From the NCBI GenBank assembly GCA_963777945.1, contig CAVZSN010000009.1, forward strand, positions 22,286-86,285: a DNA stretch of 64,000 nucleotides. The letters are read 5' to 3'. Each line of letters starts with the position of its first letter. Positions within the stretch are counted from its first letter, which is position 1. This stretch comes from an uncultured Actinomycetota bacterium (lineage in GTDB: Bacteria > Actinomycetota > Thermoleophilia > RBG-16-64-13). Positions 2,261 through 19,628 of this stretch are shown piece after piece. The translations under genes were made by a program, and so were the position numbers. The notes under the pieces were generated by a model. It had not been told where the DNA came from, did no database searches, and saw nothing but the letters and a program-made list of their open reading frames with translations.

Positions 2261-3130
2261 AGACTTCAGCAGGTCCACCATGGTCTTGATGTGGTCGGGA
2301 GACGTACCGCAGCAACCGCCCACGAGACGCGCGCCGGCGTGGACGCACGCTTCGACTCCCGCGGCGAATGTCGCGGGCGACATGTCGAACACCAGTTCTT
2401 TGTCCACCAGTCGCCCTTTGCCGGCATTGGGCTGGGCGATGATGGGCAAGGTCGTGGCGGCCTTCATCATCGCAACCACTTCGGCCATCTCCAGGGGGTC
2501 GAGGTTTCCGCAGTTGGCCCCTACCGCCGCAGCCCCCGCCTCAGTCAGGGCTTCCGCGCACCGGACGGCGGTGTCCCCCATCACCGTCCGCCCACCGTTC
2601 GTGGAGGTGTTGAACGCGATGGTCGCAAAGACAGGGAGGTCGGTGGCTTCCCTCGCGGCCCGCAAAGCGCACAGTGCTTCCCGCAGGTCGAACATCGTCT
2701 CGACGATGAGGCCGTCCACTCCGCCCTCCGCGAGGATGGCCGCTTGCTGCTTGAAGGCCGCGAAAGCATCGTCTTCCGGAAGTGGTCCGTACGGTTTCAG
2801 CATCTTGCCGGTGGAACTCATGTCACCGAGCACATACTGGCCCTCGCGCGCCGCCGTCCGGGCCAGCCTGGCTCCCGCCAGATTGACCTCGCTCACATCG
2901 ACGCCCACGTTGTGGGAATCGATGTTGACGCTGTTCATGGTCAAGGTGTTGGTGATCAGGAGGTCGATACCGCAGGCGGCGTAACGCTCGTGAACGGCGA
3001 GCACAGCCTCAGGGTGGGTGACGCAGTTCTGGCCCCCCATCTCCAGGCCGGCTTGACCCAATTGGGTGCCCATGGCCCCATCGAGGAAGATGGTGGTTCT
3101 GCTGCTGCTGAGAAGTTCGAGCAGACTCAT
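2252..3130 (-). CDS. homocysteine S-methyltransferase family protein (Hcy-binding domain)
   Basis: 292 aa. N-terminal IFLDGAMGTQL and C-terminal GGCCGTSPDHI signatures of the S-methyl_trans / MetH N-domain family. Convergent 9-nt overlap with the flavoprotein gene. Confidence 0.75.
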   Translation of the reverse strand: MSLLELLSSSRTTIFLDGAMGTQLGQAGLEMGGQNCVTHPEAVLAVHERYAACGIDLLITNTLTMNSVNIDSHNVGVDVSEVNLAGARLARTAAREGQYVLGDMSSTGKMLKPYGPLPEDDAFAAFKQQAAILAEGGVDGLIVETMFDLREALCALRAAREATDLPVFATIAFNTSTNGGRTVMGDTAVRCAEALTEAGAAAVGANCGNLDPLEMAEVVAMMKAATTLPIIAQPNAGKGRLVDKELVFDMSPATFAAGVEACVHAGARLVGGCCGTSPDHIKTMVDLLKSLP

Positions 3131-3247
3131 TTCGCTGTCGCCCCCTGGTCGTTGCTGGCAGTGAACGGTAGGTGGGAGATCCCGTACGCGTCCTTGGTCG
3201 CTAGTCTAGCGTTCGGCGCGGCGGCTGAGTAGCGCTCGTGGCGGCGT

Positions 3248-3722
3248 CTACAGCGGTAATCCGAGCAGGACCTCCGCGCCCTCCATCTTCCCCGTATGCT
3301 GGAACCCGGCCCGTAAATAGAACTCCTCCGGACAACCAGGTCCCGGTACGTATGAGACGAGCAGATCGGAAGGTGTCCCGCGCGCCTTGGCATGTGCGAT
3401 GACCTGCTCGAGGGCGGCCGCACCGATTCCCTGGCGCTGAGACCGAGCATCGACCATGAAACGCCAGATAGCGATCTCCGGATGCTGGGGAGGTGTAGGC
3501 CGGAGCCGCTCGTCGTACAGCATCGACGAACCCGACCGGTGAGTCATCCAGGTAGATGGCGCGGTACCAGGCCTCGGGTGTGAAGAGAGCCTCGGCGAGA
3601 GAAACCGCGTTGCTGGCGACGAAGCGCTCTTGCCCGGGGGCGACTGCGAGATCGGTGATCTGACGTACGGTGTCGGCAGTGATCTCGCGCAGCGTCACCC
3701 GGTCGGCGATCGCGGACATCAC
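3248..3722 (-). pseudogene. GNAT family N-acetyltransferase, one frame disruption near 3525
   Basis: The N-terminal part (MMSAIADRVTLREITADT...YLDDSPVGFV) is in ORF 3201..3722. The C-terminal part with the acetyl-CoA motif (RSQRQGIGAAALEQVIAHAK...FYLRAGF) is in ORF 3248..3547. The two join with a 1-nt shift. Confidence 0.65.
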
Positions 3723-3760
3723 TCATCCTCCTGGTCTGGTGCTTCCTGGACGATCCTGTC

Positions 3761-4315
3761 TCAGCCGATGTAGATCACGTTTCCTCTCGGCACGCGCTCC
3801 ATCCGGCGGAACTTGTCCTCGTCGTCGGTGTAGCCCAGGGCCAGCCCGCATTCCATCTGGGATCCCTCGGGGATGCCGGCCTCGCGAGCGAGGTCGATGT
3901 TCTCCGGTGCGTTGAGCGCGTACGCGGGCGAGCGCAGGAAGCACGAGCCCAGCCCGAGTTCGGTGGCCTGAAGCAGCATGTTCTCGGCCGCGACCGCACA
4001 GTTGAGCTGCGTGATCGCCATGTCCTTGGGGCCGGAAAGCAGGATGACCGCCGCTGCACCGTAGGTGGGGAGGTACCCGGGGAGCGAGGCCCGCTCCACC
4101 AGGAAGTCGTTGCCCGAGGCGAGCATCGCCTGTAGCGTCCGTTCGTCGATCTTGCCCAGGAGCTCGCGGTCGCGGATGACCGACATCGTGTACTCGCCCG
4201 CGTTCGGAGCCCATCTGCCGGCCGTGATGATGGCCGCGAGATCCGCTTCCGGCACCGCTTTGTCCCGATAGGAGCGGATGCTTTTCCTCTTGAGTACTGC
4301 TTCATCGACGTTCAT
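3761..4315 (-). CDS. nitroreductase family protein
   Basis: 184 aa. KRKSIRSY N-terminal motif, GRWAPNAG, and LQATELGLGSCF, typical of the NAD(P)H nitroreductase fold. Lies downstream of the Mo-enzyme pair on the same strand. Confidence 0.8.
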   Translation of the reverse strand: MNVDEAVLKRKSIRSYRDKAVPEADLAAIITAGRWAPNAGEYTMSVIRDRELLGKIDERTLQAMLASGNDFLVERASLPGYLPTYGAAAVILLSGPKDMAITQLNCAVAAENMLLQATELGLGSCFLRSPAYALNAPENIDLAREAGIPEGSQMECGLALGYTDDEDKFRRMERVPRGNVIYIG

Positions 4316-4378
4316 GTGTTTCTCCTTGGTCTTGAACCGGTGGTGTCGTCGGCTCTATCCGGTGTTCGCTCGATCTGC

Positions 4379-5209
4379 TCAACTTTTCCACAGTTCCACA
4401 TCGCCCACGTTCTGGTCGGCGACGGTGGCATCGATAGGGCCCAGCTTCTTGGTGAGATACCCGTCTTTCTCTATGGTGAGGACGTAGCTTGCGTCCCCCA
4501 GGCCCTTGAGCCAGAAGTCGCCGTAGTTGTCGGTGACGGCGGAAAGGGTGTCGCCGGTTTCCGGGTTGGTGGCAGTGACGGTGGCCCCTTGCACGCACTC
4601 ATCGGCCTCGGGGTCATAAAGGGCCCCGGCGATCCACTTCTTGGGCAGGTTCAGGTAGTAGACCCGGGGACGGGTGGGAAGCTCGGGCTTAAGGAGCTCC
4701 GCCTGGGCCAGCTTGTCCTTGACCCGGGGGTCGTCTTCGTCGGCGAAGGTGAAGGCTCCGGTGGGGCAGGCATCTGAGCAGCGGGTCTCGGTCCAGCCCT
4801 GATCTAAGAGATGGGCGCAGAAGGTGCACTTCTGGGCGATGTTGAGGTCGTCGTTGAAGTAGATGACGTTCTCGTAGGGACAGGCTTCCAGACACAGCTG
4901 GTTACCCCGGCACCACTCCGGAGAGATGATGACGATGCCGTCCTCTCTTCGGTAGATGGCTCCGGCCGGACAGGCCTCGATACAGGGAGCCTCCCGGCAG
5001 TGCTGACAGATACTGTGGTGATAGGTCACCATGACCTTGGGTACCGTACCCCGTTCCAGGTCGATCACCTTGTTCCAGAACTGACCCGTATCGGGCTGGG
5101 GTTTGGCGATGGGCGTCCAGTCGTTGGCCACGTGCTCGTCCTTGCAGGCGATCTGGCAGTTGTGGCAGCCGTTACAGATGGCGAGATCGATGAGCATGAC
5201 TTTGGCCAT
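4379..5209 (-). CDS. Fe-S beta subunit of a pyrogallol-transhydroxylase-type (BthL-like) molybdoenzyme
   Basis: 276 aa starting at MAKVMLIDLAICNGCHNCQIACKDEH. Cys groups: CNGCHNCQIAC, CQHCREAPCIEACP, CLEACP, CTFCAHLL..CSDACP. KPELPTRPRVYYLNL is followed by a C-terminal beta-sandwich-like tail (GATVTATNPETGD...YVLTIEKDGY), as in the small subunit of the Pelobacter transhydroxylase. ATG 5209 overlaps the corrected alpha stop. Confidence 0.8.
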   Translation of the reverse strand: MAKVMLIDLAICNGCHNCQIACKDEHVANDWTPIAKPQPDTGQFWNKVIDLERGTVPKVMVTYHHSICQHCREAPCIEACPAGAIYRREDGIVIISPEWCRGNQLCLEACPYENVIYFNDDLNIAQKCTFCAHLLDQGWTETRCSDACPTGAFTFADEDDPRVKDKLAQAELLKPELPTRPRVYYLNLPKKWIAGALYDPEADECVQGATVTATNPETGDTLSAVTDNYGDFWLKGLGDASYVLTIEKDGYLTKKLGPIDATVADQNVGDVELWKS

Positions 5210-7853
5210 CAGGCACCCCCTTCCGTGAAGCCCGCTATGCAGGGCCCGGCGGTGATGTGGCACTCGCGGGCGAACGCTTCGGGATACTTGGACCTGCAGA
5301 CCCTCGAGGTCGGTCTTCTCCACTTCCACCAGGAAGCCGGAGACGGCCATGCCCACCGTGTTCTTGGAGGTGCAGTTGCGGGGCACGATGGTGTTGATCA
5401 CCCCGCCTCGGTCGATCTCGCCGGGGACGATGGGGTCGTACTTGGCGCCGTGGTCGATACCCACCGCCCCGGCGATGATGCGCTCGGTGACGTAGGCGCC
5501 GGCCAGGACGGTGCCGCGCTCGTTGTAGATGCTGACCACATCTCCGTGCTTGATGCCGCGGGCGTTGGCGTCCGCCGGGTTCATCCACAGCGGGTGATAC
5601 TGATAGCCGTCGCTGCCCCGGATCTTGCAGGTGTCGATCTCCCGGAACCAGGTGACGTCGTCGTGCTGGGAGTGCACCCCCCAGCGGGGGTGGTTGCTCA
5701 TGACGAGGAGCGGATACTTCTTCGCGCGCTCCGTCCCCAGGGTCTCCTCGTGCGAGACGCCTTGCGGGATCCACTGCGGCACCGGCGGCCGCTCCGGGTC
5801 GTCGGGGAAGTGCTCGGCCAGACCGGTCGAGTAGAACTCCAGCTTGCCGGTCGGCGTGGAGAGGGGGTGCCTCTCCGGATCCTCGTAGAACTCGATGAAG
5901 CCGGCGGGGATGTCCTCCCAGCCAGGTTCGGTCGGCACGACGTAGTAACCCTTCTCGTTCAGTTCTTCCCAGGAGATCTTGTCGGCGACTCCGGAGAACT
6001 CCCAGCCCGACTTGATGATCTCGGGGATGGTCTGCCCTCCGGTGTATTCCTCGAGTAGTCCCAGCCTCTCTGCGATCTTGCACACCACCTCGTAGTCGCT
6101 CACCGATTCACCGAGTGACTCCATGCACCGGGGCTCGGGATAGAGCATGTCCATCTGCCCGCTGAAGATGTCGGAGCCGATGTCGTCCTCTTCCAACTTG
6201 GTGTTCACCGGCAGGAGCACATCGGCGAAGAGAGCGTCGTTCTCGATCCAAGGATGCTGACACAAAACGAACTCGATGGATTCGTCGCGCAGCGCCCGGA
6301 TGAAGTTGTTGCCATCGTTCCAGCAGGTGATCCACGACGGCGAGTCGGTCCAGATCATGTGGATCTTGGAAGCCCCCTCGGCCGGGTACTTGTACTCCAC
6401 GAACTGGTCGGTGGCTTCGCTCCGCATCCCGTGTCTGTTGCCGTACCAGGTGCCCTCACCGTCGAGGATCAACTTGGGCACCAGGGTCTTGGGGATGCAC
6501 GATTCGCGGCCCTCTTCCGGAGGGATGTCCCCCCGGTAGGCGGCATCCAGACTGATTGACACCTCGGGTTTCGGAGCGGCCTGGTTCTCGGGATCACGGC
6601 CCAGGGCCCACTCGATCATCTTGGCCTGATTGCAGCCCGGCTTGCCCAGCCCCTGCATGGCGAGACAGAGCACCTGCAGCCGGGCGGGCTCGGTGGAGTA
6701 GGGGCCACGGATGGCCGGCCCGCCGTTGGAGATGACGATGGTGGTCCTCTTCGACGCCCATTCGTCGGCCAGGGCCTTGATGATGCGCGCCGGCACTCCT
6801 GTGATGGGCGCCGCCCACTCCGGGCTCTTGGGCTGGCCGTCCTCCTCGCCCCTCACGTAGGCCTCGAACTTGTCGACGCCGTAGGCATGGGTCGCGAGGT
6901 ACTCCTTGTCATAGGTGCCTCGGTCGAACCAGCGGTGGGCGATGGCCAGATACAGGGCGGCGTCGGTGTTGGGGAGGACTGGGATCCACTTGTCGGCGTG
7001 CACGGCGTTGCCGTAGTTGCAGTCGGGCGCGATATAGATCTGCTTGATGCCCAGTTCGCTCCACCAGTAGTTGAAGCGGCTGACGAGTTGTCCGCCCCAT
7101 CCCCAGGGCGTGGTCTCGGGGTCACATCCCCAGAAAAGAAGCAGTTCCGCGTTCTTCGAGATGTCGTAGAGCAGGTTCTTCTGCGGCAGTTGCTGACCGA
7201 TGGGCTCGCAACCCCACACGTGCTTGGCTCCCCAATACCAGCCTTCCCAGGAGTCGGCATTACGCACTTGGTGAGTGTAGCCACCGAAGAGGGCTAAGCA
7301 GCTTCCGCCCGCAGCCGTGGGGTCCGTGCACGGTCTTGTTCTCGCCGTGCTGGTCGTTCTGGTAGAGGATGGCCGTCGGACCGTAGGCCTTCTTGACCCG
7401 CAGCATTTCGCTCGTGACGATGTCCAGCGCCTCGTCCCACGAGATCCGCAGGTACTTGCTCGCTCCCCGGTTCTGGATGTTACGGCCGCCCGGGCCGGTG
7501 GAGCCCGGCGCGCCGGTATGGTCGAAGTCCACGCGCTTCATGGGGTAGCGGATCCGAGCCGGGGAGAAGACCCGCTTCTTGTAGCAGAGGGAAAGCGGCG
7601 GAGGCAGGGTCTTTTCGCCGGGATCGAAGGTCTTGCCCCGGGCGTGCATCACCCAGGGTTTGACCTCCTCCTTGGTGTACTTGTCGTAGAAGCGGGCGGG
7701 GCGGATGCGAAGGACCTTGCCGTCCTTGGTGTCCACCATGCAGGCGTTGCCGCCCCAGGAGACGCCAATGAAGCACATATCGCGGACGATGGTCCTCGCC
7801 TCGGACTGCTGTGACCCGGTCGCCCCTGTCTTCGCCTGGTCGGCCACGTTCAT
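5209..7853 (-). pseudogene. bis-MGD molybdopterin oxidoreductase alpha subunit, transhydroxylase (AthL/RhL) family paralogue; two frame disruptions (near 7297 and 5290)
   Basis: The N-terminus is in ORF 7260..7853 (RBS AGAGGAG, MNVADQ...YPMKRVDFDHTGAPGSTGPGGRNIQNRG). The body is in ORF 4379..7267 (NADSWEGWYWGAKHVWG...). A shift after ...VEVEKTDLEGLQ restores the tail SKYPEAFARECHITAGPCIAGFTEGGA-stop, with TGA at 5211-5209. There is no Tat signal and no N-terminal Cys cluster, as in AthL. Confidence 0.75.
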
Positions 7854-7894
7854 CTCCTCTCGTCAAGACCTCGAGCCATCATAGTACGAGGAGG

Positions 7895-7918
7895 GCCTCC
7901 GGTGCATCCACCGGAGGC
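7895..7918. promoter_or_regulatory. perfect 10-bp inverted repeat (GCCTCCGGTG-CATC-CACCGGAGGC) in the divergent intergenic region
   Basis: Read directly from the sequence. It lies about 40 nt upstream of the Mo-enzyme start codon. The A-run follows it on the + strand and a T-run precedes it on the - strand, which is the wrong geometry for a terminator of either neighbour. Confidence 0.3.
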
Positions 7919-7978
7919 GCCAAAAAACTGGATGCGCTCCGGGCAGTGGCCCCTCGGCACCAGCCACCGGGCGCCGCC

Positions 7979-8067
7979 GTGTCCCTAGCGTGTCCCCGGA
8001 GGTTGACATGTAGATGCCCCAGGTATAGGATGCCTGATGCGGGCCCATGTGTCCCCATGGTGTCCCC
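7979..8067 (+). promoter_or_regulatory. candidate promoter (TTGACA 8003-8008, 17-nt spacer, TAGGAT 8026-8031) bracketed by two pairs of GTGTCCC(C) direct repeats
   Basis: The repeats start at 7979, 7990, 8049 and 8060, all on the same strand, with 11-bp spacing inside each pair. Pair 1 abuts the -35. Pair 2 lies in the predicted 5' UTR of the gene starting at 8128. Confidence 0.45.
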
Positions 8068-8127
8068 GAACGCAGAATGGATCAGCCCCCGAGGTCGACT
8101 GTCGGGACGCAGCCGGGAGGTACGCCG

Positions 8128-10956
8128 ATGGCCAAGATCACGAAGCGGCTCGTGGACAGCCTCAAACCCGATCCGACCCGCGAGACATTCGTTGCCGACG
8201 ACGAGCTTCCCGGCTTTGGGATCCGGGTCAGGCCGTCCGGGGCCGCCTCGTACATCCTGAGGTACAGGAACGCCGCAGGACTGTCACGGCGGCTCACCAT
8301 CGGCCGGGTGGGCGTCCTCTCACCGGAAGAGGCCCGGCGAGCGGCGCAGCAGCACCTGGCGGCGGTCAAAGGTGGGGCGGACCCGGCGCAGGCGAAGAGG
8401 CAGGCCACCCAGGCCGCAGACCAAGAGCCCAAGGAGGTCCAGCACGGCATCGACGAGCTTCGCCGGTTCAGGATCTTCGCCGAACTGGAAGACGAAGACT
8501 TCGAAGCCATCGCTCACATCGCCCGGGTCAAGGAATTCGAAGTGGCCGAGAAGCTCACCACCGAGGGGGCGCCGGCCGACCAACTCTATCTGTTCTTGAA
8601 GGGGCAGGCGGCGGTCAAGGTCCGTGATCCCTACGGTCGCCAGGTACTCATCGACGAACTCGGCCCCGGAGAGCTTCTAGGTTGGGGAGCAGTGACGGAG
8701 CCCCACGTCTACACGGCTTCGGCGTGGACCAGCCGACCCTCCCAGGCGATCGTCATCGACGGCAAGCGGCTGCGCGACCTCTGTGAAGAGAACAAGCGGA
8801 TCGGCTACGAAGTGGCCAAGGGCGTGGGGGAAGTCATCTCCAAGCGTTTCGGACTTGCTGTGGCCGGCCGGGGGGGTCAGACCCTCGCCGGACACGGCAT
8901 CGACGAACTTCGCCAGTTCAAGATCTTCGCCGAACTGGACCTGGGCGATCTGGACGCCATCGCGCGCATCGCCTATGTGCGCGAGTTCGCAGCCGGGGAG
9001 GAGCTGACGGTGGAGGGCGCTCCTGCCGACCACCTCTATCTGTTCCTCAAAGGCAAGGCCAGGGTCAAGGTCAAAGGCGCCAACGGTCGTCACGCAGTCA
9101 TCGATGAACTCGGCCCCGGGGAGCTCTTGGGTTGGGGAGCCGTCATGGAGCCCCACGTCTATACGGCCTCCGCGTGGACGACGGAACCCAGCGAGGTGAT
9201 CGTCGTCGACGGGACGGATCTTCGCGAACTCTGCAAGACCAGCAAGCACCTGGGATACCAGGTCTGCAAGGGCATCGGCGAGGTCATGTCCACCCGGTTC
9301 GGGCAGGCCGTGACCGGGCAGGGCACTCCCGCGCTTGCCGATCACGGCACGGACGAACTTCGCCAGTTCAGGCTCTTCGCGGAGCTGGAGGACGAGGACT
9401 TCGAGTCCATCGCGCGGATCGCGCGCATCCAGGAGTCCCAACCCGGCGAAGAACTGACCACAGAGGGAACTGCGGCCGACCATCTCTACCTCTTTCTCCA
9501 AGGCAAGGCGGCGGTCACGGTCAAGGGCGCCGACGGCCGCCAGGTGCTCATCGACGAGATCGGTCCCGGGGAGGTGCTGGGCTGGGGAGCGGTGACCGGA
9601 CCTCCTCATGTGTACACGGCCACAGCCTGCACGATGGAACCGTCTCAGCTGATCGTCTTCGACGGCAAGGACCTTCTCCGGCTCTGCGAGACCAACAACC
9701 GCATCGGCTATCAAGTGGCGAAAGGCATCGGCGACATCGTCTCCAAGCGCTTCGGCCGGGTCGCATCGGGCAGGAAGGGGCAGGTTCTGGCGGGACATGC
9801 CATAGACGAACTCCGCCAGTTCAAGATCTTCGCCGAACTGGATGTGGCCGACCTGGATTCCATCGCCCACCTCGCCTATGTCCGGGAGTTCGACGCGGGC
9901 GAGGAACTGATAACGGAAGGCGACCCTGCGGAGCAACTCTACCTGTTCCTGAACGGCAAGGCGGTGGTCAAAGTCCGGGGTGCAGACGGCCGTCAGGTCC
10001 CCATCGACGAGCTCGGTCCCGGCGAGGTGCTGGGTTGGGGAGCGGTCATGGAACCGCACATCTATACGGCTTCCGCGTGGACCCTCGAACCGTCCGAGCT
10101 CGTGATCGTCAAAGGGAATGATCTGCGCGGCCTGTGCGACGCCAACAAGCATTTGGGTTACATGGTGTGCAAGGGGATCGGCGAGGTCATGTCCACTCGC
10201 TTCGGCCAGGCCGTCCGGGGCCATGGGATCGACGAACTGCACCAATTCAAGATCTTCGGGGAGCTCGACTTCGCCGATCTCGACGCAATCGGGCGTATCG
10301 CCCACATCCGAGAGGTCGGACCCGGTGAGGAGCTCATAGCCGAAGGCAAGTCGGCCGACGAGCTGTATCTCTTCTTGGAGGGGAAGGCCTCCGTGAAGGT
10401 ACGTGACCCCGACGGCCACCAGGTGCTCATCGACGAGATCGGTCCCGGAGAGGTGCTGGGTTGGTCGGCCGCGGTGGAACCCTACGTCTACACCGCCTCG
10501 GCCTGGACGAGCGAGCAGTGCGAGCTGATCGTGGTGAACGGCCAACGTCTGCGCCAGCTCTGCGAGAGCAACAAACGCCTCGGCTACCAGGTCACCCGGG
10601 GTATCGGTGAGATCATCTCCAGACGCTTCGGACGAGCCATGGGCGCCCGGGGAGATTTGCAGGATAAGGATCTGCGGGCCTTCGGCGGCGAGGAGCGGGT
10701 CGTCTGGGATGACGGTCTGCTCCAACTTACCACCGAAGCGATCCTCATCGGTATGGGGAGCGACAGCCCCGAGGTGATCCCTCTTGAGGCCGTCTACGAC
10801 GTCGACGTGGAGAACGGTTGCCTTGTCTTCCACGTGCAAGGCGGCGACGTCTGCTCGCACTGCATCGACGATCCGGATCATCTGGCTGCACTGGTCCGTG
10901 ACGAGATGCTGCGCAGCCGCCACGCTCAGAGACGCAAGGACTACTACGTCCACTAG
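8128..10956 (+). CDS. multidomain protein: integrase Arm-type DNA-binding domain (DUF4102-like), five tandem cNMP-binding-like (CAP effector) domains, and an uncharacterised C-terminal domain
   Basis: ATG 8128 is preceded by GGGAGG (8115-8120). The N-terminus MAKITKRLVDSLKP...ELPGFGIRVRPSGAASYILRYRN..RRLTIGRVGVLSPEEARRAA...GGADP matches the P4-type integrase arm domain. It is followed by five ~150-aa units of pattern ELRxFxIFAEL..EG..AD.LYLFL.G...V......G.....IDE.GPGE.LGW. No recombinase catalytic domain is present. Confidence 0.8.
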   Translation: MAKITKRLVDSLKPDPTRETFVADDELPGFGIRVRPSGAASYILRYRNAAGLSRRLTIGRVGVLSPEEARRAAQQHLAAVKGGADPAQAKRQATQAADQEPKEVQHGIDELRRFRIFAELEDEDFEAIAHIARVKEFEVAEKLTTEGAPADQLYLFLKGQAAVKVRDPYGRQVLIDELGPGELLGWGAVTEPHVYTASAWTSRPSQAIVIDGKRLRDLCEENKRIGYEVAKGVGEVISKRFGLAVAGRGGQTLAGHGIDELRQFKIFAELDLGDLDAIARIAYVREFAAGEELTVEGAPADHLYLFLKGKARVKVKGANGRHAVIDELGPGELLGWGAVMEPHVYTASAWTTEPSEVIVVDGTDLRELCKTSKHLGYQVCKGIGEVMSTRFGQAVTGQGTPALADHGTDELRQFRLFAELEDEDFESIARIARIQESQPGEELTTEGTAADHLYLFLQGKAAVTVKGADGRQVLIDEIGPGEVLGWGAVTGPPHVYTATACTMEPSQLIVFDGKDLLRLCETNNRIGYQVAKGIGDIVSKRFGRVASGRKGQVLAGHAIDELRQFKIFAELDVADLDSIAHLAYVREFDAGEELITEGDPAEQLYLFLNGKAVVKVRGADGRQVPIDELGPGEVLGWGAVMEPHIYTASAWTLEPSELVIVKGNDLRGLCDANKHLGYMVCKGIGEVMSTRFGQAVRGHGIDELHQFKIFGELDFADLDAIGRIAHIREVGPGEELIAEGKSADELYLFLEGKASVKVRDPDGHQVLIDEIGPGEVLGWSAAVEPYVYTASAWTSEQCELIVVNGQRLRQLCESNKRLGYQVTRGIGEIISRRFGRAMGARGDLQDKDLRAFGGEERVVWDDGLLQLTTEAILIGMGSDSPEVIPLEAVYDVDVENGCLVFHVQGGDVCSHCIDDPDHLAALVRDEMLRSRHAQRRKDYYVH
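8443..10635 (+). repeat. in-frame tandem array of five ~450-nt coding units (cNMP-binding-like domains)
   Basis: Units begin at 8443, 8893, 9343, 9796 and 10222 (periods 450, 450, 453 and 426 nt), each with CA(C/T)GG/CxATxGACGAACT. The units are diverged, alternating between two subtypes. Confidence 0.85.
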
Positions 10957-10976: not shown

Positions 10977-11807
10977 ATGCATATCATCGTCGACCGTCGT
11001 GAGCTCACAAAGGGGGACATGATTTCCCTGACGGTGGAGGCCCCCGCCATTGCTCGCAAGATCCGCCCCGGGCAGTTCATCATCCTCAGGGTGAACGAGA
11101 CCGGCGAGCGCACGCCCCTCACCGTGGCCTACAAGGATGAGATCCACGGCACGATAACCATCATATTCCAGGTCCTGGGCAAGACCACGGCCATGCTTGC
11201 CTCCCTCAAGGTCGGCGACGCTATCAAGGACCTGGTGGGTCCGCTGGGCTGTGACGAGCGCTTCAACAGGATCGGCACGGTAGTGGGGATCGGGGGGGGC
11301 TCGGGAATAGCCGTTCTCCACCACATCCTGCAAGGGTCCAAAGAGGTGGGGAACTCACTCATAGGCATCATCGGAGCCCGGGAAAAAGCCCTTCTCATAC
11401 TTGAGGACGAGATGGCGGCTCTTTGCGACCGGCTGCTCATCACTACCAACGACGGCAGCGCCGGCATGCACGGCCTGGTCACCGATGCCCTCGCCAAGCT
11501 GGTGGAGGAGCAGGTCCACATCGACCAGGTCATCGCCGTCGGTCCGCTCATCATGATGCGTGCCGTCTGCGAGATGACCAAGCTCTACAAGATCCCCACG
11601 CTGGTAAGCCTCAACCCCATCATGGTCGACGGTACCGGGATGTGTGGCTGCTGCCGGGTGACGGTCGCCGGGGAGTGCAAGTTCGCCTGCGTCGACGGTC
11701 CCCATTTCGACGGCCATCAGGTGGATTTCGACGAGCTCATCCAGCGCAACAGCATGTACTCCCGCGACGAGAGGGCTTCCCTTCTGACCTCGATCAGGGC
11801 CCGCTAG
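10977..11807 (+). CDS. nfnA: NfnA/SudB-type ferredoxin-NADP+ oxidoreductase small subunit (FAD/NAD-binding, 2Fe-2S)
   Basis: 276 aa. RPGQFIILR, GIGGGSGIA and the C-terminal MVDGTGMCGCCRV..CKFACVDGPHFDGH cluster motif. Starts 20 nt after the upstream stop. Confidence 0.75.
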   Translation: MHIIVDRRELTKGDMISLTVEAPAIARKIRPGQFIILRVNETGERTPLTVAYKDEIHGTITIIFQVLGKTTAMLASLKVGDAIKDLVGPLGCDERFNRIGTVVGIGGGSGIAVLHHILQGSKEVGNSLIGIIGAREKALLILEDEMAALCDRLLITTNDGSAGMHGLVTDALAKLVEEQVHIDQVIAVGPLIMMRAVCEMTKLYKIPTLVSLNPIMVDGTGMCGCCRVTVAGECKFACVDGPHFDGHQVDFDELIQRNSMYSRDERASLLTSIRAR

Positions 11808-11816
11808 GAGGTGAGC

Positions 11817-13631
11817 ATGGCGCCGAGGACCGAGACCGAGTCCAAAGGCCTTCCCGCGGGGACCGAGATCGCGGCGTATTGCCCGCACTGTCACCAGGCG
11901 CTGAACGTCTTCGATGCGGCGACCAAACAGGTGTGGGTGCGCCTGATGGTGTCTGCCGACGGGGAGGGGGGAGAGTTGCTCCTGAGCCCCAAGCCCGATG
12001 TGTTCGAGCGACAGGTGAGCGTGGAGCTGAACGAGAGCAGGGTGGTCGACGACGTCTCCTGCCCTCACTGCGGCCGTTCGCTCGTGGAGCAAGGTGTCTG
12101 CGAGGTCTGCGGCGCGCCTGCGGCGCGCCTCGTCATCTATGCACAATCCCGGCTGGTCGAATATTCGATATGCACGAACATGACCTGTCACTGGCACGGG
12201 ATGTCTCGCGCCGACCAGGCCAAGATCAAACCGAAGGTCCCCAGACAGAAGAAGCCCGAGCAGGATGCCCTTCTTCGGATACGTAACTTCAATGAGGTCT
12301 CGTACGGCTTCGACCGGGAACTGGCCGTCCTCGAAGCGAGCCGCTGTCTGGAGTGCAAGAAGCCGGCCTGCGTCGGGGGTTGTCCGGTGGGTATCGACAT
12401 CCCGGGCTTCATCCGCCTGATGAAAGCCGGCGAGTTCGTGGAGGCCGCCAGGCACATCAAGCAGAAGAACGCCCTTCCTGCGGTGTGCGGACGGGTCTGT
12501 CCCCAAGACGATCAGTGTGAGAAGGTGTGCATCGTCGGCAAGAACGGTGACCCGGTGGCCATCGGCAATCTGGAGAGGTTCGCCGCCGACTTCGAGCGCG
12601 AGACCGACTCCGTCTCTCTCCCCCGCAAAGCCACGCCCACCGGCAAGCGCATAGCGGTGGTGGGTAGCGGTCCCGCCGGCCTCACCCTGGCGGCCGATAT
12701 GGTGGCCAAGGGGCACTCGGTCACCGTGTTCGAGTCGCTCCACAAGGCAGGGGGGGTGCTGGTCTACGGGATCCCCGAGTTCCGGCTGCCCAAGGCCATA
12801 GTCGAGTCGGAGATCGACTACCTTCGCCGCCTGGGAGTGAAGATAGAGCTAAACTCCATCGTGGGACGCCTCTACACTCTCGAAGAACTCCTCGAGACCG
12901 GCTACGACGCCATCTTCGTGGGCACCGGCGCGGGGCTGCCCATATTCATGGGACTTCCAGGCGAGAACCTGTGCAACATCCTCTCCGCGAACGAGTACCT
13001 CACCCGGATCAATCTCATGAAGGCCTACGCCTTTCCCGAGTACGACACCCCGGCTCCGAAAGGTCAGCAGGTCGCCGTCCTTGGCGCAGGCAACGTGGCC
13101 ATGGACTGCGCTCGGACTGCGGTACGCATGGGGGCCCGCGAGGTGACCATCGTCTATCGGCGCACCCGAGACGAGATGCCGGCCCGCAGCGAGGAGATCG
13201 AGCACGCCCTGCAGGAAAACGTGAGGTTCCGCTACCTGTCCAGCCCCATCCGTTTCGTCGGAGACGACCGGGGCTGGGTCAGGCAGATGGAGTGCATCCA
13301 GATGCAGCTGGGGGAGCCCGACGCGTCAGGACGGCCGAGGCCGATCCCCAAGGCCGGTTCCAACTTCATCATGGATGTGGATCTGGTCATCGTCGCGGTG
13401 GGGGCAGGTCCTAACCCTGTGCTCTTCTCCGGCTCTCCCGGTCTGGAGCAGACCAAACGGGGCTACATACAGGCGGTGACCCCTTCAGGTCGCACGAGCA
13501 TCCCTCGCGTATGGGCCGGGGGTGACATCGTCACCGGATCGGCTACGGTGATCCTCGCCATGGGCGCCGCCCGTCAGGCGGCCGACGACATGGACGAGTA
13601 TCTGAGAAGCGATTCGGCCGAGTGGCCGTAA
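11817..13631 (+). CDS. nfnB: NfnB/GltD-type NADPH-dependent oxidoreductase large subunit with an extra ~150-aa N-terminal Cys-rich (zinc-ribbon-like) extension
   Basis: AGGAGG at 11806-11811 precedes ATG 11817 (an in-frame GTG at 11811 is also possible). The core has CLECKKPACVGGCPVGIDIPGFI, CGRVCPQDDQCEKVC, VAVVGSGPAGLT and VAVLGAGNVAMD. The extension carries CPHC(24-27), CPHC, CEVC and CTNMTCHWH. Confidence 0.75.
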   Translation: MAPRTETESKGLPAGTEIAAYCPHCHQALNVFDAATKQVWVRLMVSADGEGGELLLSPKPDVFERQVSVELNESRVVDDVSCPHCGRSLVEQGVCEVCGAPAARLVIYAQSRLVEYSICTNMTCHWHGMSRADQAKIKPKVPRQKKPEQDALLRIRNFNEVSYGFDRELAVLEASRCLECKKPACVGGCPVGIDIPGFIRLMKAGEFVEAARHIKQKNALPAVCGRVCPQDDQCEKVCIVGKNGDPVAIGNLERFAADFERETDSVSLPRKATPTGKRIAVVGSGPAGLTLAADMVAKGHSVTVFESLHKAGGVLVYGIPEFRLPKAIVESEIDYLRRLGVKIELNSIVGRLYTLEELLETGYDAIFVGTGAGLPIFMGLPGENLCNILSANEYLTRINLMKAYAFPEYDTPAPKGQQVAVLGAGNVAMDCARTAVRMGAREVTIVYRRTRDEMPARSEEIEHALQENVRFRYLSSPIRFVGDDRGWVRQMECIQMQLGEPDASGRPRPIPKAGSNFIMDVDLVIVAVGAGPNPVLFSGSPGLEQTKRGYIQAVTPSGRTSIPRVWAGGDIVTGSATVILAMGAARQAADDMDEYLRSDSAEWP

Positions 13632-14859: not shown

Positions 14860-16665
14860 CTAGGGCGTATGGCCGTCCTCTGCGGCCGGCAGCCTCACGG
14901 TGAAGGTGGACCCCGACCCCAAGATGCTCGAGACCTCGACCTTGCCGCCATGCCGCTCGGCGACGTGACGCACGATACTGAGGCCGAGGCCGGTGCCGCC
15001 GGTCTCCCGCGATCGCGCCTTGTCGACGCGATAGAAGCGTTCGAAGATGCGGCGCTGCTCGGCGATCGGGATGCCCACACCATCGTCTTCCACGGTGAGC
15101 ACGACCCAGCGGCGCTCGGCGAGCCCCTCCTCGTGCTGTACGCTCACCGTGATGTGCCCGCTGGGCTCGGTGTAACGGATGGCGTTATCGAGCAGGTTCC
15201 GGATGAGGGTCCGAAGGGCGATCTCGTCCCCGAGGACCACTCCGCCGAGCTTCACCTCGACAGTCAGGCCCTGGTTCTTCGCCTGCGCCAGAGGCAGCAG
15301 TTCGGCCGCGGTCTCCTCGGCCAGCCGACCGAAGTCGACGGGGACGAACTCACTCTGTATCTGCGCGCCCGGTTCCTCGAGCCGCGATAGCGTGAGGAGG
15401 TCGTTGGCCAAGTCCAGCAGACGCTCGATCTCGGCCGAGAGCCGGTCGACGAACACCGCCGCTTGCTCCGGATCCTCTCGGATGGCGTGTTTGAGCGTCC
15501 CCGCTAGCAGAGAGAGCCCGGCCAAGGGTGTCTTCAGCTCGTGGGAGACGTTGGTGGCGAAGTCCCGCCGGATGCGATCGGTGATAAGCCGCGCGGTCTC
15601 GTCACGGATCACGAACAGGGTCTGTCCTTGTTCGCCGCCTGCCGCGTGGAGGGGGACTACCTCGACTGCCGCGTACTGCTGCCCCGGTAACTCGACGATC
15701 TCATGCACGGGTCCATCGGCCTGGCGCGATCTCTCGGCCAGCGACCAGGCCGGGAAGGCTCGGGCCGCGACGACCAAGGGAGCGCCTTCGGTCCCTTCCA
15801 GCCGGCTTTGGAGGATGCGTTCCGCGGCCGGGTTGGCCCGTACCAAGCGGCCTTGCTCATCGACCACCACGACTCCCTCGGACATCGCCGTGAGCACCTG
15901 ACCCGAGCGCTCCGTCTCGGTACCGAGCCTGGTGACCTGGGTCTCGAGTTGAGAGGCCATGCTGTTGAGCGATTCCGCGAGTTCACCGAGTTCATCTCTC
16001 CGGCGGACGCTGGTCCGATAGGCCAGGTCACCCGAAGCGACGCGTCTGGTCATCTCTTGCAGCCGCTCGATGGGTCTTGTGATCGACCGGGTGAACAGAT
16101 AGGAGACGGCCAGGGTGGGTAGCAGCAGCACGGCCCATACGATGAGCGGTATCCGCCAGGAGGCGGCCACCATGGCATCGACCCGGCTGGCGGGTAGCGC
16201 AGCGCGCACCACGCCGTCCGACCAGCCGGCGTCGCCGGCGGGCAGCGGCATGGCGACATAGACTTCCTCCTGCTTCAGCGTGGCCGACTCGCGGCGCGCC
16301 CGGCCCTCGTGGCCGGCGAGGGCCTGAGCCACCTCGGGGCGGTCGGCGTGGTTGTCGAGCGTGGCCGGATCGACCTCCGAGTCGGCCAGGACCGTGCCGT
16401 CCTCGGCGATGATGGTGAGGCGGAGCCCTCCCGCGTCGCCCGCCGCGTCGGTGAGCGTCTGCAGGTAGGCCGGGTCATCGCCGGCCGAGGTGGAGGCCTC
16501 TTGTTCCAGGACGGCCGCGTACTGATGGGCCTGCCGGGACATGTCGTCCTCCAGCCGGTCAAGATAGACACCACGCAGCACCAGGGCCGCCACCAGCGCG
16601 ACGATGCCGGCGAAGACCAAGGTGATGAGCGCGAAAGCCAGTGGCAGCCGGTAGCGCAGGCGCAT
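14860..16665 (-). CDS. phoR: sensor histidine kinase, PhoR/SenX3-like (2 TM, HAMP, PAS, HisKA, HATPase)
   Basis: 601 aa, intact. TM helices at the N-terminus and around residue 180, H-box SHELKTPL, and G-boxes DDGVGI / GGTGLGLSIV. Sits next to an OmpR-type regulator and pstSCAB-phoU. Confidence 0.8.
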   Translation of the reverse strand: MRLRYRLPLAFALITLVFAGIVALVAALVLRGVYLDRLEDDMSRQAHQYAAVLEQEASTSAGDDPAYLQTLTDAAGDAGGLRLTIIAEDGTVLADSEVDPATLDNHADRPEVAQALAGHEGRARRESATLKQEEVYVAMPLPAGDAGWSDGVVRAALPASRVDAMVAASWRIPLIVWAVLLLPTLAVSYLFTRSITRPIERLQEMTRRVASGDLAYRTSVRRRDELGELAESLNSMASQLETQVTRLGTETERSGQVLTAMSEGVVVVDEQGRLVRANPAAERILQSRLEGTEGAPLVVAARAFPAWSLAERSRQADGPVHEIVELPGQQYAAVEVVPLHAAGGEQGQTLFVIRDETARLITDRIRRDFATNVSHELKTPLAGLSLLAGTLKHAIREDPEQAAVFVDRLSAEIERLLDLANDLLTLSRLEEPGAQIQSEFVPVDFGRLAEETAAELLPLAQAKNQGLTVEVKLGGVVLGDEIALRTLIRNLLDNAIRYTEPSGHITVSVQHEEGLAERRWVVLTVEDDGVGIPIAEQRRIFERFYRVDKARSRETGGTGLGLSIVRHVAERHGGKVEVSSILGSGSTFTVRLPAAEDGHTP

Positions 16666-16694
16666 CGCTCAGGTCTCCAGGGGCGATCGAGTTC

Positions 16695-17424
16695 TCACGA
16701 CGGGGTCAGACGGTAGCCGACGCCACGTACGGTCTGCAGCTCCACCCTCGCCTTTATGCCTTCCAGCTTGGCCCGCAGGCGGCGCACATGCACGTCCAGC
16801 GTCCGCGAGGCCGGGATATAGCGCTGGTGCCAGACGCGCTCCACGATCTCCTCTCGCGGGAAGAGGTGGCCCGGCCGGGAGAGCAGCAGCTCGAGCAGAT
16901 CGTGCTCCTTGGGGTTGAGCGCCACCTCCCCGCTGGGTGTGCGGACGACGTGGGCATCGCGGTCGAGTATCAGATCCCCGGTGCCGAGACTTCCGCCGTC
17001 GGGCGCGGCCGAGGGAACGGCAAAGCCGCTGGGCGCGCGCCGCAGGCGCGCCGCGATGCGGGCCAGCAGAACGTCGAGGTCGAACGGCTTGGTGATGTAG
17101 TCGTCGGCGCCCGGCCGAAGCCCTCCAGCATCGTCTCGCGCTCGCTGCGGGCGGTGAGCATGATGATGGGCAGAGTGGGCTTTCGCCGGACGATCTCCGG
17201 CTGGCCGCCATGCCGTCCAGTCCGGGCAGCATGAGGTCCATGAGCACCAGGTCGACGTTGCCGGCGAGGGCCGTCTCCAGCCCGGCGCGCCCGTTGTGCT
17301 CCTGCAGCACCTCGTAGCCGGCGCGCCGGAGGTTGTAGGCGAGAAGGTCGGAGATGGTCGGGTCGTCCTCCACCAGCAGGATGCATTTCTTGTCTGGTCT
17401 CAGCGCCCACCGGCCGCCTCGCAT
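16695..17424 (-). pseudogene. phoP: OmpR/PhoB-family response regulator (PhoP/RegX3-like), two frame disruptions (near 17210 and 17108)
   Basis: Receiver N-terminus KKCILLVEDDPTISDLL...DLVLMDLMLPGLDG is in ORF 16669..17424. PTLPIIMLTARSERETMLEGF is in ORF 16970..17458. GADDYITKPFDLDVLLARI plus the winged helix (LNPKEHDLLELLL...TVRGVGYRL) is in the frame of ORF 16695..16925. Confidence 0.75.
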
Positions 17425-17426
17425 AA

Positions 17427-17480
17427 TTAACCCGGGTGTAACCGAGTGTTAACACCACGCTGTCACGTCTCCGCTAGCCT
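17427..17480 (+). promoter_or_regulatory. PHO-box-like phased hexamers plus candidate -10 for pstS
   Basis: TTAACC (17427), GTAACC (17438) and TTAACA (17449), plus a weak CTGTCA (17460), sit at exact 11-bp phase. TAGCCT (17475-17480) fits TAnnnT. The element lies between the divergent regulator and pstS. Confidence 0.45.
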
Positions 17481-17520
17481 GCAAGAAGCGGACAAAGCAG
17501 CGAAAGTGAGGAAGACAGGG

Positions 17521-18645
17521 ATGACTCTGAAAGGCAAGCGCAACGGCCTGGTCGCCGTCCTGGCCATGGCGCTGATGTTGATAGTCGGCCTGGGGATCGC
17601 GGCCGCAGGCTGCGGCGGCGGCGATCTGCCCAGCGCGGGCGGCGGCACGACGACCTCGGACGGCACCGGCACCACCTCCGGCGGTGAACTCTCCGCCTCC
17701 CTCAACGGCGCCGGCGCCACCTTCCCCCAGCCGCTCTACGTCGAGTGGATCGGCGAGTTCCAGTTGGCCAACCCCGACGTGAAGATCAACTACCAGGGTA
17801 TCGGCTCGGGCGGCGGCATCGAGCAGTTCACCAAGCTGACCGTCGACTTCGGCGCCTCTGACGCCCCCATGAAGGACGAAGAGATCACCGCCGCTGAGGC
17901 GGCGAGTGGGGCCAAGGTGCTGCACATCCCCACCGTGTTCGGCGCGGTCGTGCTCGCCTACAACCTGCCCGAGGTGTCGACGAGCTCAAGCTCGACTCCG
18001 ACACTCTGGCCGGCATCTTCCTGGGCAAGATCACCAAGTGGAACGATGCCAAGATCGCCGCGCTCAACCCGGGCGTGACTCTGCCGGACAAGGCCATCCA
18101 GACCGTGCACCGCTCCGACTCCTCGGGCACCACCAACATCTTCACCGGCTACCTGACCAGCGTGAACCAGGCCTGGGCCGACGCAGTCGGCAAGGGCAAG
18201 GAAGTCAAGTGGCCGGTGGGCGTGGGTGGCAAGGGCAACGACGGTGTGGCCGCGGTGGTCCAGCAGCAGGAAGGCGTCGATCGGCTACGTCGAGCTCTCC
18301 TACGCGATCGAATCGGACTGACCATGGCCACGCTCAAGAACAGCCGGCAACTTCATCGCCCCCAGCCTGGAATCGACCTCGGCGGCGGCCGCGGGCGTCG
18401 ACTTCCCCGACGACCTGCGCTTCTCGGTAGCAACAGCGCCAACGCCGACGCCTACCCGATCGTGGGCGCCACCTGGATCCTGGCCTACGACAAGATGCCA
18501 GACGCGGCCAAGGCCGAGGCTCTCAAGGCCTTCCTGACCTGGTCGCTGACGACGGCACCGCCATCGCCGAGGAGCTGGGCTACGCCCCCCTCCCGAGGAT
18601 CTGAGAGCCCTGGCTCTCGCCAAGGTGAATGCGATCGGCAGCTGA
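17521..18645 (+). pseudogene. pstS: phosphate ABC transporter substrate-binding lipoprotein PstS, several frame disruptions
   Basis: Lipobox LGIAAAGC. GAGATFPQPLY, INYQGIGSGGGI and FGASDAPM are in ORF 17446..18078. HRSDSSGTTNIFTGYL and PIVGATWIL are in ORF 18075..18677. The reconstructed C-terminus ...LGYAPLPEDLRALALAKVNAIGS ends at TGA 18643-18645. Confidence 0.8.
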
Positions 18646-19628
18646 CATCTCCTCCTCGACCGCCGACACCCCCCTAGGCGGTGGCCGCCAGACCCCGGTC
18701 CGGGGGTCTGGCAGCGAGAAGGGAGTCGGCCGCAGGGCCGACTCCCTCTTCGCCATCCTCGCCGGCTCTCTGCGGCGTGCTCGTCCTGCTGGTGCTGGCC
18801 TACATGGTCGTCTCCACCACGGGCACGGCGCTGCCGGTCTTCCGGTCGCAGGGCATCTCGTTCGTCACCGGCAGCGACTGGGACCCCAGCAACGGGCGAA
18901 TTCGGAGCCCTCTCCTTCATCTACGGCACGATCGTCACCTCGGTCATCGCTCTGATCATCGCCGTGCCGCTGAGCCTGGGGGTCGCCCTCTTCTCTCACC
19001 GAGTACGCTCCCAAGCGGCTGCGGAGCCCCGATCGGGTACGCGGTCGACCTGCTGGCGGCGGTGCCCAGCGTGATCTACGGCCTCTGGGGCGTGTTCGTG
19101 CTGCTGCCGCTCTTCCTGCAGCCGGTGACCGACTTCCTGGCCAAGTACCTGGGCTTCATCCCCATCTTCAAGGGCCCTGCCTCGGGGCTCTCGTACTTCG
19201 GCGCCGGCGTGATCCTCGCCATCATGATCACCCCCATCATCACCTCGCTCACCCGGGAGGTGCTCGCCACGGTGCCCACCGCCGACCGGCACGCCGCCTA
19301 CGCGCTGGGGGCCACCCGGTGGGAGATGATCCGGCAGGCGGTGCTGCCGCGCAGCCGAGCGGGCATCGTGGGCGCGACCATGCTCGGTCTGGGCCGGGCT
19401 CTGGGCGAGACCATCGCCGTGGCTCTGCTCATCGGCTCGGCAGCCAAGGTCGACGCCTCGATCGTCAGACCGGGCTACTCCATGGCCGCGGTCATCGCCA
19501 ACAGTTCTGGGAGGCCACCGGCGACCACATCCGGGCCCTGGTGGGGATCGGGGTGGTGCTGTTCGTCATCACCATCATCGTCAACATGGCCGCGCGCGCG
19601 CATCGTGTGGCGGTTCAACCGGATATGA
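18629..19628 (+). pseudogene. pstC: phosphate ABC transporter permease PstC, at least seven frame disruptions
   Basis: The pieces RRADSLFAILAGS / LCGVLVLLVLAYMVV / EFGALSFIYGTIVTSVIAL / LTEYAPKRLRS / PIGYAVDLLAAVPSVIYGLWG...LGRALGETIAV / QFWEATGDHIRALVGIGVVLF / IVWRFNRI are spread over three frames. Confidence 0.75.

Follow-up and report, generated by a model that had tools for sequence, protein, structure and literature searches.

Arm-type direct repeats at the promoter of an Arm-CNB fusion gene in an uncultured Actinomycetota bacterium: a probable operator for autoregulation

An arm-binding domain is considered characteristic of mobile-element integrases, and the general arm-binding role of the N-terminal domain of lambda Int has been summarised (PMC8138268). 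In the Escherichia coli prophage KplE1, the arm-type sites overlap the promoter of the integrase gene and negative autoregulation by IntS has been shown, and self-repression through arm-type sites has likewise been reported for P4 Int (PMC2951348). IntS of ICEMlSymR7A represses its own promoter via arm-type sites, and the experimentally defined P sites of this DUF4102-type integrase follow the consensus TGKTGGTATC (PMC11963761). Elements of the same kind are described here in a 64,000-nt stretch of DNA from an uncultured Actinomycetota bacterium (GenBank assembly GCA_963777945.1, contig CAVZSN010000009.1, positions 22,286 to 86,285 of the forward strand), hereafter called the window. They are direct repeats of GTGTCCC upstream of a gene encoding a 942-amino-acid (aa) protein, Arm-CNB, in which an Arm DNA-binding domain of the integrase type is joined to five domains resembling cyclic-nucleotide-binding (CNB) domains. 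The repeats are probably domesticated arm-type sites, serving as the operator through which the Arm domain would negatively autoregulate its own operon.

Like IntS and P4 Int, Arm-CNB has an Arm domain of the same family and short direct repeats immediately upstream of the gene of the putative binder, and the sites lie at or just past the (predicted) promoter, where self-repression is expected. Unlike them, it has neither a core-binding nor a catalytic recombinase domain and carries five attached CNB-like domains, and its gene lies in a conserved chromosomal operon with a TGTGTCCCC motif, in a window with no attachment-site core and no tRNA. As in arm-type sites, a motif of ca. 9-10 bp occurs in adjacent direct copies with a spacing of one helical turn, beside the gene that encodes the putative binder. 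An attachment site in the full sense, i.e. a flanked core at a tRNA 3′-end together with a binder that possesses recombinase domains, was not found in the window. The N-terminal domain of lambda Int binds the adjacent arm sites P′1-P′2-P′3, and on the reading proposed here the two systems are alike in having a small beta-sheet domain for each site of ca. 10 bp, adjacent direct repeats about one turn apart, and separate subunits of an oligomer to occupy them. They differ in that the lambda domain belongs to another Arm subfamily and in that its purpose is the assembly of a recombination complex, not transcription control.

Repeats, promoter and protein of the Arm-CNB locus

Four copies of GTGTCCC were located on the + strand at 7979, 7990, 8049 and 8060, forming two pairs at the positions given in the first-pass annotation of this DNA; GTGTCCCT starts at 7979, and GTGTCCCC at 7990, 8049 and 8060, throughout on the same strand. 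The spacing is 11 bp inside each pair, in agreement with the single helical turn initially proposed, and 70 bp from pair to pair. In fact, a 20-nt unit is repeated, GTGTCCCTAGCGTGTCCCCG at 7979-7998 and GTGTCCCCATGGTGTCCCCG at 8049-8068 being 85% identical. The two pairs flank a predicted promoter (-35 box TTGACA at 8003-8008, -10 box TAGGAT at 8026-8031), which is the sole promoter-like site within 7700-8300. Pair 2 begins 17 nt past the -10 box and would thereby fall in the 5′ untranslated region. The flanking arrangement is as described in the first reading, and the gene starts at the ATG at 8128, not at 8130. The features of the locus are as follows.

7978..7986, + strand: arm-type repeat 1a, CGTGTCCCT, with the heptamer at 7979-7985; member of pair 1
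7989..7997, + strand: arm-type repeat 1b, CGTGTCCCC, 11 bp past 1a and ending 5 nt short of the -35 box
8003..8031, + strand: predicted sigma-70-type promoter TTGACA-17 nt-TAGGAT, score 10/12
8048..8056, + strand: arm-type repeat 2a, TGTGTCCCC, at about +10 from the predicted transcription start
8059..8067, + strand: arm-type repeat 2b, GGTGTCCCC, 11 bp past 2a
8115..8120, + strand: Shine-Dalgarno sequence GGGAGG, 7 nt ahead of the ATG
8128..10956, + strand: Arm-CNB gene, 942 aa, with the Arm domain, five CNB-like domains and a C-terminal domain of ca. 85 aa
8128..8421, + strand: region coding for the Arm DNA-binding domain, aa 1-98, including R35 and R45
10977..13631, + strand: two downstream genes, encoding a 276-aa protein (DHODB_Fe-S_bind) and a 606-aa protein (Fer4_20/Pyr_redox_2)

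The heptamer as such is not enriched in the 64-kb window, with 14 copies against 13.9 expected, as was anticipated from its sporadic occurrence elsewhere. The GTGTCCC cluster is the sole site in the 64 kb in which any 7-mer occurs at least four times without overlap in 100 bp, and such four-copy clusters appeared at a mean of 0.04 per window in first-order Markov simulations, which agrees with the original statement that four phased copies are unlikely by chance. No further phased pair with up to two mismatches was detected elsewhere in the window, and the two sites with three mismatches represent chance level.

The Arm domain matched the Pfam profile PF13356 (Arm-DNA-bind_3/DUF4102) at 56.5 bits, the cut-off being 27, and its residues 5-93 cover profile positions 2-83 of 83; five cNMP_binding stretches were identified in the same protein. 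The Pfam search returned no Phage_integrase, SAM-like core-binding or catalytic recombinase domain and no helix-turn-helix in the 942 aa, and a second Arm-like coding region was absent from the window. An AlphaFold2 model of the Arm domain only (predicted local distance difference test score, pLDDT, 81.6) had 3ju0, 3jtz and 3rmp_C as its top Foldseek matches (probability 1.00, TM-scores 0.57-0.75), which are the arm-type binding domains of HAI7, HPI and P4-like integrases; no other Foldseek match fell below an E-value of 0.5, and sequence search of solved structures gave marginal matches alone (E-values 0.065 and 0.1). The modelled fold, a four-stranded sheet plus helices, agrees with the solved arm-type domains. 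In the full-length model, the Arm domain and five CNB-like barrels were separated by low-confidence linkers, among them residues 94-105 directly behind the Arm domain.

The phosphate-binding segment GPGE[LV]LGWGAV.EPH[VI]YTASAWT was recognised in 5/5 CNB-like domains (residues 179-800), each of which by reading has a tyrosine at the site where binders of cyclic AMP (cAMP) or cyclic GMP (cGMP) carry arginine. Because of this replacement, the ligand of these domains may be other than cAMP or cGMP. Proteins of the family bear the automatic JGI name of CRP/FNR-family regulators, and domains of the cyclic-nucleotide-binding fold are indeed common to both. Arm-CNB differs from CRP/FNR in the lack of a C-terminal helix-turn-helix, in having five CNB-like domains and not one, in its direct repeats in place of a palindrome, and in the tyrosine that substitutes for the phosphate-binding arginine in all five domains. 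The C-terminal module (residues 857-941, 10699-10956), composed of seven strands and one long helix, gave no Pfam match, and by eye its topology looks pleckstrin-homology-like.

Conservation and protein-DNA covariation

The host belongs to a lineage of uncultured Actinomycetota known from metagenome-assembled genomes alone, and all homologues of Arm-CNB likewise originated from assemblies of uncultured Actinomycetota, Thermoleophilia or Gaiellales. Full-length homologues were of two classes, proteins of ca. 941-958 aa with the Arm domain and proteins of ca. 840 or 532 aa without it. Upstream DNA was compared for nine Arm-CNB loci (the window, L081, L086, L087, L090, L093, L094, L160 and L161). 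The pattern GTGTCCC-N4-G(T/C)GTCCCC was present upstream on the gene strand in 8/9 of these, with two pairs in the window and in L081, one pair each in L086, L087, L094, L160 and L161, and three copies in L090. The ninth locus, L093, which has the most divergent Arm domain, instead contains in the same place an 11-bp-phased TGCTTACCC-gg-TGCTTACCC. A search for the pattern over 161 loci matched the 7 Arm-CNB loci among them and no others.

The downstream pair is conserved upstream of the orthologues in 8/8 GTGTCCC-type loci. Of the four-copy arrangement initially emphasised, pair 1 is confined to the window and its closest relative L081, with one upstream copy kept in L086; the conserved and presumably essential element is pair 2. 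In the alignment of the nine upstream regions, the conserved islands were the -35 box, the -10 box, the repeat pair and the Shine-Dalgarno sequence (a GGAGG column), and nothing else. Promoter-like sites were predicted in 8/9 loci. The first downstream repeat was situated 15-18 nt past the -10 box in 7/9 loci and 4 nt past it in L090, and L160, which lacks a predicted promoter, has its pair 80 nt upstream of the start codon. As the distance to the -10 box is fixed while that from repeat to start codon drifts (19 to 79 nt among the Arm-CNB loci), the element is tied to the promoter and not to the ribosome-binding site. The repeats remain intact across loci with 65-78% protein identity, while the surrounding intergenic DNA is unalignable.

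In none (0/8) of the Arm-less homologues did the 300 nt ahead of the gene contain a phased pair of exact 7-mers. These genes start with GTG behind AAAGGAG and have in-frame stops upstream, and their N-terminus, MLSGIDELRQFKIF, aligns to residues 105-118 of the window protein, so the Arm domain and its linker were joined exactly at the old N-terminus. With or without the Arm domain, nearly every homologue with available downstream DNA is followed by the same two NfnAB-like genes (276 aa and ca. 605 aa), and the upstream neighbour gene differs between loci. In a tree of the C-terminal 252 aa, the GTGTCCC-type Arm proteins formed one clade nested among the Arm-less proteins, and therefore the tally of pairs in Arm-bearing versus Arm-less loci corresponds to few independent events. 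L093 was placed apart from this clade on a long branch, and its gene (2965-5862) has an in-frame stop after codon 216 plus two frameshifts; this copy may have been captured independently or may be in decay. Two Arm-less loci of the 532-aa type contain repeats of another kind ca. 220-260 nt upstream of the gene, four GCTTAC copies with spacings of 13, 9 and 11 nt in L088 (2739-2777) and one GCTTACCC in L089 (at 2783). No integrase was found nearby, and these repeats may be relic arm-type sites.

In the parent family, a phased pair is a hallmark of the gene. An exact 7-mer pair with a phase of 10-12 bp was present within 300 nt upstream of the start in 110/123 (89%) loci of Arm-type integrases, against 138/1629 (8.5%) control windows subjected to the same test. 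The integrase-gene pair had a median start of -48 from the start codon, about -20 to -60 being typical. The repeat motifs of the integrases form one family of the TGnnTnCCC type, including TGCTTACCC, TGCTTCCCC, TGCTTACG, TGCTTCCG and others. The motif of the Arm-CNB genes, TGTGTCCCC, equals TGCTTCCCC in 7/9 positions, and none of the integrase loci examined used it. The module looks inherited from the 5′-end of an integrase gene and not newly evolved. Inheritance of the promoter geometry was also considered and rejected, as a consensus-like promoter was found in 16/109 integrase loci and its spacing was inconsistent.

The closest proteins to the Arm domain taken by itself, P0033-P0038, seemed to be stand-alone Arm proteins and as such candidates for independent regulators. 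This was dismissed after the three examined, P0034-P0036, proved to be front halves of frameshifted integrases. Upstream of the latter, 11-bp-phased TGCTTACCC pairs (L162 and L164) or three GCTTCCCC copies (L163) were observed, with no + strand promoter in L162 or L164. In L162 (ca. 2830-2880 and 2761-2781), a tRNA 3′ fragment separates a GGGTAGAAA-ta-GGGTAGAAA pair from the TGCTTACCC pairs; its anticodon is GTA by eye, and ARAGORN detected no intact tRNA. The arrangement resembles an attachment site with arm sites oppositely oriented on its two arms.

Covariation between protein and DNA was analysed in 93 non-identical Arm domains with a registered TGnnTnnnn pair, residues being numbered as in the window protein (GFGxRV[X]). 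Phenylalanine at residue 35 was accompanied by G at base 8 of the repeat in 32/32 cases, lysine by C in 24/25, arginine by C in 9/9, tryptophan by T in 10/10, and methionine, leucine or threonine by A in 11/11. The mutual information between residue 35 and base 8 was 1.67 of 1.79 bits (1.69 bits in integrases alone), with 1.10 bits for the runner-up column and a maximum of 0.58 across all columns in 2000 label shuffles, which ignore shared ancestry. All columns share one tree, and residue 35 nevertheless stands well above every other column. In addition, the identity of bases 3-6 follows residue 45, glutamine being found with CTT, lysine with GTTG, and arginine with either TGTC or GTTC. The Arm-CNB proteins associated with TGTGTCCCC have R35 and R45, invariant in the clade, and L093 has K35 and Q45 with TGCTTACCC, like the integrases that use TGCTTACCC.

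This correspondence supports an Arm specificity that matches the repeat sequence in the Arm-CNB loci, L093 included, and it is the strongest available non-experimental evidence that the Arm domain would read the repeats. As a candidate recognition code, the rule for residue 35 and base 8 would make it possible to predict the arm sites of P4/SXT-type integrases from the sequence of the protein, and it could help to annotate attachment-site arms in integrative and conjugative elements, prophages and genomic islands.

Neighbourhood and rival explanations

The downstream oxidoreductase pair is NfnAB/SudAB-like and probably co-transcribed with the Arm-CNB gene over a 20-nt gap. The locus is flanked by a molybdenum oxidoreductase gene and these NfnAB-like genes, and no tRNA, tmRNA, integrase or attachment-site core was identified in the window. 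Further downstream, pstS and pstC are adjoined by genes for a histidine kinase (14860-16665, - strand) and a response regulator (16669-17424, - strand). Upstream of pstS is GTGTAAC-N4-GTGTTAAC, which has an 11-bp phase and the GTGT start in common with GTGTCCC. Between the response-regulator gene and pstS, the 11-bp-phased direct repeat GTGTAACcgaGTGTTAAC was noted at 17436-17454; it is distinct from GTGTCCC and plausibly a Pho-type box of the host.

Several genes of the window appeared broken. The AhtL-like molybdopterin oxidoreductase gene is in two frames (7853..7260 and 7267..4379, - strand), and the long oxidoreductase open reading frame (ORF) on the - strand continues into a 4Fe-4S subunit and a CarboxypepD_reg domain; the split looks like the result of frameshifts, either assembly indels or pseudogenisation. 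The response-regulator ORF (from 16669) covers positions 1-63 of the 111 of the receiver-domain profile, and pstS is present as two overlapping ORFs (17446-18078 and 18075-18677), both of which are probably further frameshifts within the assembly. The divergent intergenic region also contains GCCTCCGGTG-N4-CACCGGAGGC (7895-7918), an inverted repeat of 10 bp without mismatch, which sits upstream of a TACTAT box for the minus-strand oxidoreductase gene. Its core GGTGCATCCACC is also kept in L081, and it may be the operator for some other regulator.

Explanations other than autoregulation by the Arm domain were weighed against these observations. The boxes of OmpR/PhoB-type response regulators are 7-bp direct repeats with 4-bp spacers and an 11-bp period, and the direct 7-bp repeats near the Arm-CNB promoter have exactly this 7+4 architecture of the Pho type. 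Control of the operon could accordingly lie with a two-component system in place of the operon's own product, the more so as kinase and response-regulator genes are found near pstS and pstC in the window, and similar genes near some orthologues, and as the pstS repeat shares the GTGT start and the phase. This is nonetheless quite improbable, because the neighbouring pst promoter bears another phased repeat, GTGTAAC/GTGTTAAC, and lacks GTGTCCC, and because the motif tracks the presence and the sequence of the Arm domain: no phased pair is present in the Arm-less homologues, whose downstream genes are identical in kind, the motif is of the TGnnTnCCC family that precedes Arm-type integrase genes, and it obeys the code of residues 35 and 45, motif and residues changing jointly in L093. 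The repeats might alternatively be relics without a present function, left from the arm of an attachment site and carried in when the integrase 5′-end was fused to the CNB gene. In favour of relics, the pair ends 10-60 nt ahead of the start codon, with the geometry of integrase genes, the fusion joint falls exactly at the old CNB N-terminus, L093 keeps an integrase-type motif, and the window has no further sites. We consider this unlikely, given that the repeats were preserved at 65-78% protein identity amid unalignable intergenic DNA, that their distance to the -10 box stayed at 15-18 nt while that to the start codon drifted, and that the motif diverged from the common integrase types along with residues 35 and 45, both of which are invariant in the clade.

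An element acting in the mRNA leader, e.g. C-rich anti-Shine-Dalgarno control of translation, would be in line with the transcription of pair 2 from the predicted promoter, with a minimum-free-energy fold that pairs the first copy with the GGGAGG region, and with CUUACCC of L093, which by reading could pair with GGGUGGG. The leader at 8038-8145, however, folds no better than shuffled sequences (z = +1.46, 188/200 shuffles folding at least equally well), and the Shine-Dalgarno distance is not conserved, ranging from 0 to ca. 50 nt while the -10 distance is fixed. Moreover, some pairs are not transcribed, the positions of pair 1 (window, L081) and of the single L160 pair being upstream of or over the promoter, and the second copies of L086 and L087 directly adjoin the Shine-Dalgarno sequence, so that a loop would not fit. 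An RNA element was for these reasons rejected as the main explanation, and there is hardly any chance that it applies. The repeats may also have a partner in a mobile element, either an integrase encoded elsewhere in the genome that binds them or integrative elements on whose arm sites Arm-CNB would act in trans, as a decoy or modulator of integration and excision. Related integrases with 50-60% identical Arm domains occur in similar metagenomes, and the motif of L093 is common to many integrases. Such a partnership is highly improbable, as integrase, attachment-site core and tRNA are all absent from the window, the chromosomal surroundings of the gene are conserved between species, and TGTGTCCCC was found in none of the integrase loci examined. 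Viral contigs were also screened as partners and discarded, since of the 120 that contain GTGTCCC-N4-GTGTCCC none (0/120) encodes an Arm domain and the matches correspond to chance.

Autoregulation by the Arm domain remains the probable explanation, and several observations weigh against it. The GTGTCCC-type proteins have a single-clade origin, so that pairs in these loci versus none in 8 Arm-less loci amount to few independent events, and the sole variant, L093, carries a stop and frameshifts and may be decaying. The Arm-less homologues are without any DNA-binding domain, which indicates that the core is not intrinsically a transcription factor, and with no second site in the 64 kb, there is no wider regulon to back such a role. 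Furthermore, the 70 bp between the pairs correspond to ca. 6.7 helical turns, out of phase for simple looping, and the position of pair 1, -59 to -41, is equally a classical activator position.

Proposed mechanism and its meaning

The autoregulation by the encoded Arm domain that was suggested in the first-pass annotation is largely supported by conservation, by the hallmark of the integrase genes, by the covariation and by precedent, and each computational test capable of refuting it came out in its favour; physical binding and repression, rather than activation, are what we infer from these. In the proposed mechanism, the Arm domain, probably together with the repeats, would be the former 5′-end of a tyrosine integrase gene of the P4/SXT type, joined exactly to the N-terminus of a pre-existing protein with five CNB-like domains. 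One Arm domain would bind each 9-bp unit TGTGTCCCC, and an oligomer would fill two units one helical turn apart. The conserved pair is placed at ca. +10 to +30 from the predicted transcription start, where occupancy would block the binding or escape of RNA polymerase. The expected outcome is negative autoregulation of Arm-CNB and the two NfnAB-like oxidoreductase genes. All observed positions of the pair appear to be of the repressor type, being past the -10 box, over the transcription start (L090) or close upstream of the gene (L160); in L160, the pair by reading covers a weak promoter that was missed by the scan.

In the window and L081, pair 1 near the -35 box may add cooperativity or allow a loop that traps the promoter, and the flexible linker of residues 94-105 may offset the off-phase separation of 70 bp. 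The CNB-like domains may bind a ligand that modulates the binding of DNA. Given the lack of any DNA-binding domain in the Arm-less homologues, the role of the core protein is probably that of sensor or partner to the NfnAB-like enzyme, and the Arm domain would add autogenous control. PutA, a non-regulatory protein with an added ribbon-helix-helix domain for DNA binding, represses its own operon. The two cases are alike in that homologues without the domain occur beside the same partner genes and in that an N-terminal addition targets, or in Arm-CNB would target, the protein's own promoter. They differ in the integrase origin of the Arm-CNB addition, which is not a ribbon-helix-helix, and in that PutA is an enzyme.

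A fuller proposition, in which the Arm domain and its arm sites were domesticated into a chromosomal switch, the Arm domain becoming the DNA-reading head of a ligand-sensing multi-CNB autoregulator of a redox (NfnAB-like) operon with its specificity re-tuned from K35/Q45-TGCTTACCC to R35/R45-TGTGTCCCC, we regard as evenly balanced between true and false. If the re-tuning is true, it would insulate the switch from resident integrases.

Arm-type sites and the self-repression of integrases are known. New here is the union of a recombinase-less Arm domain with a multi-CNB protein, encoded by a conserved chromosomal operon and accompanied by a variant of the motif that none of the examined integrases showed; no description of an Arm-CNB fusion was found in the papers searched on DUF4102, PF13356 and Arm-DNA-bind. 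If the proposed autoregulation is true, the locus would be a clean case of a host that recruited a domain of a mobile element together with its cis sites as a ready-made autoregulatory module.

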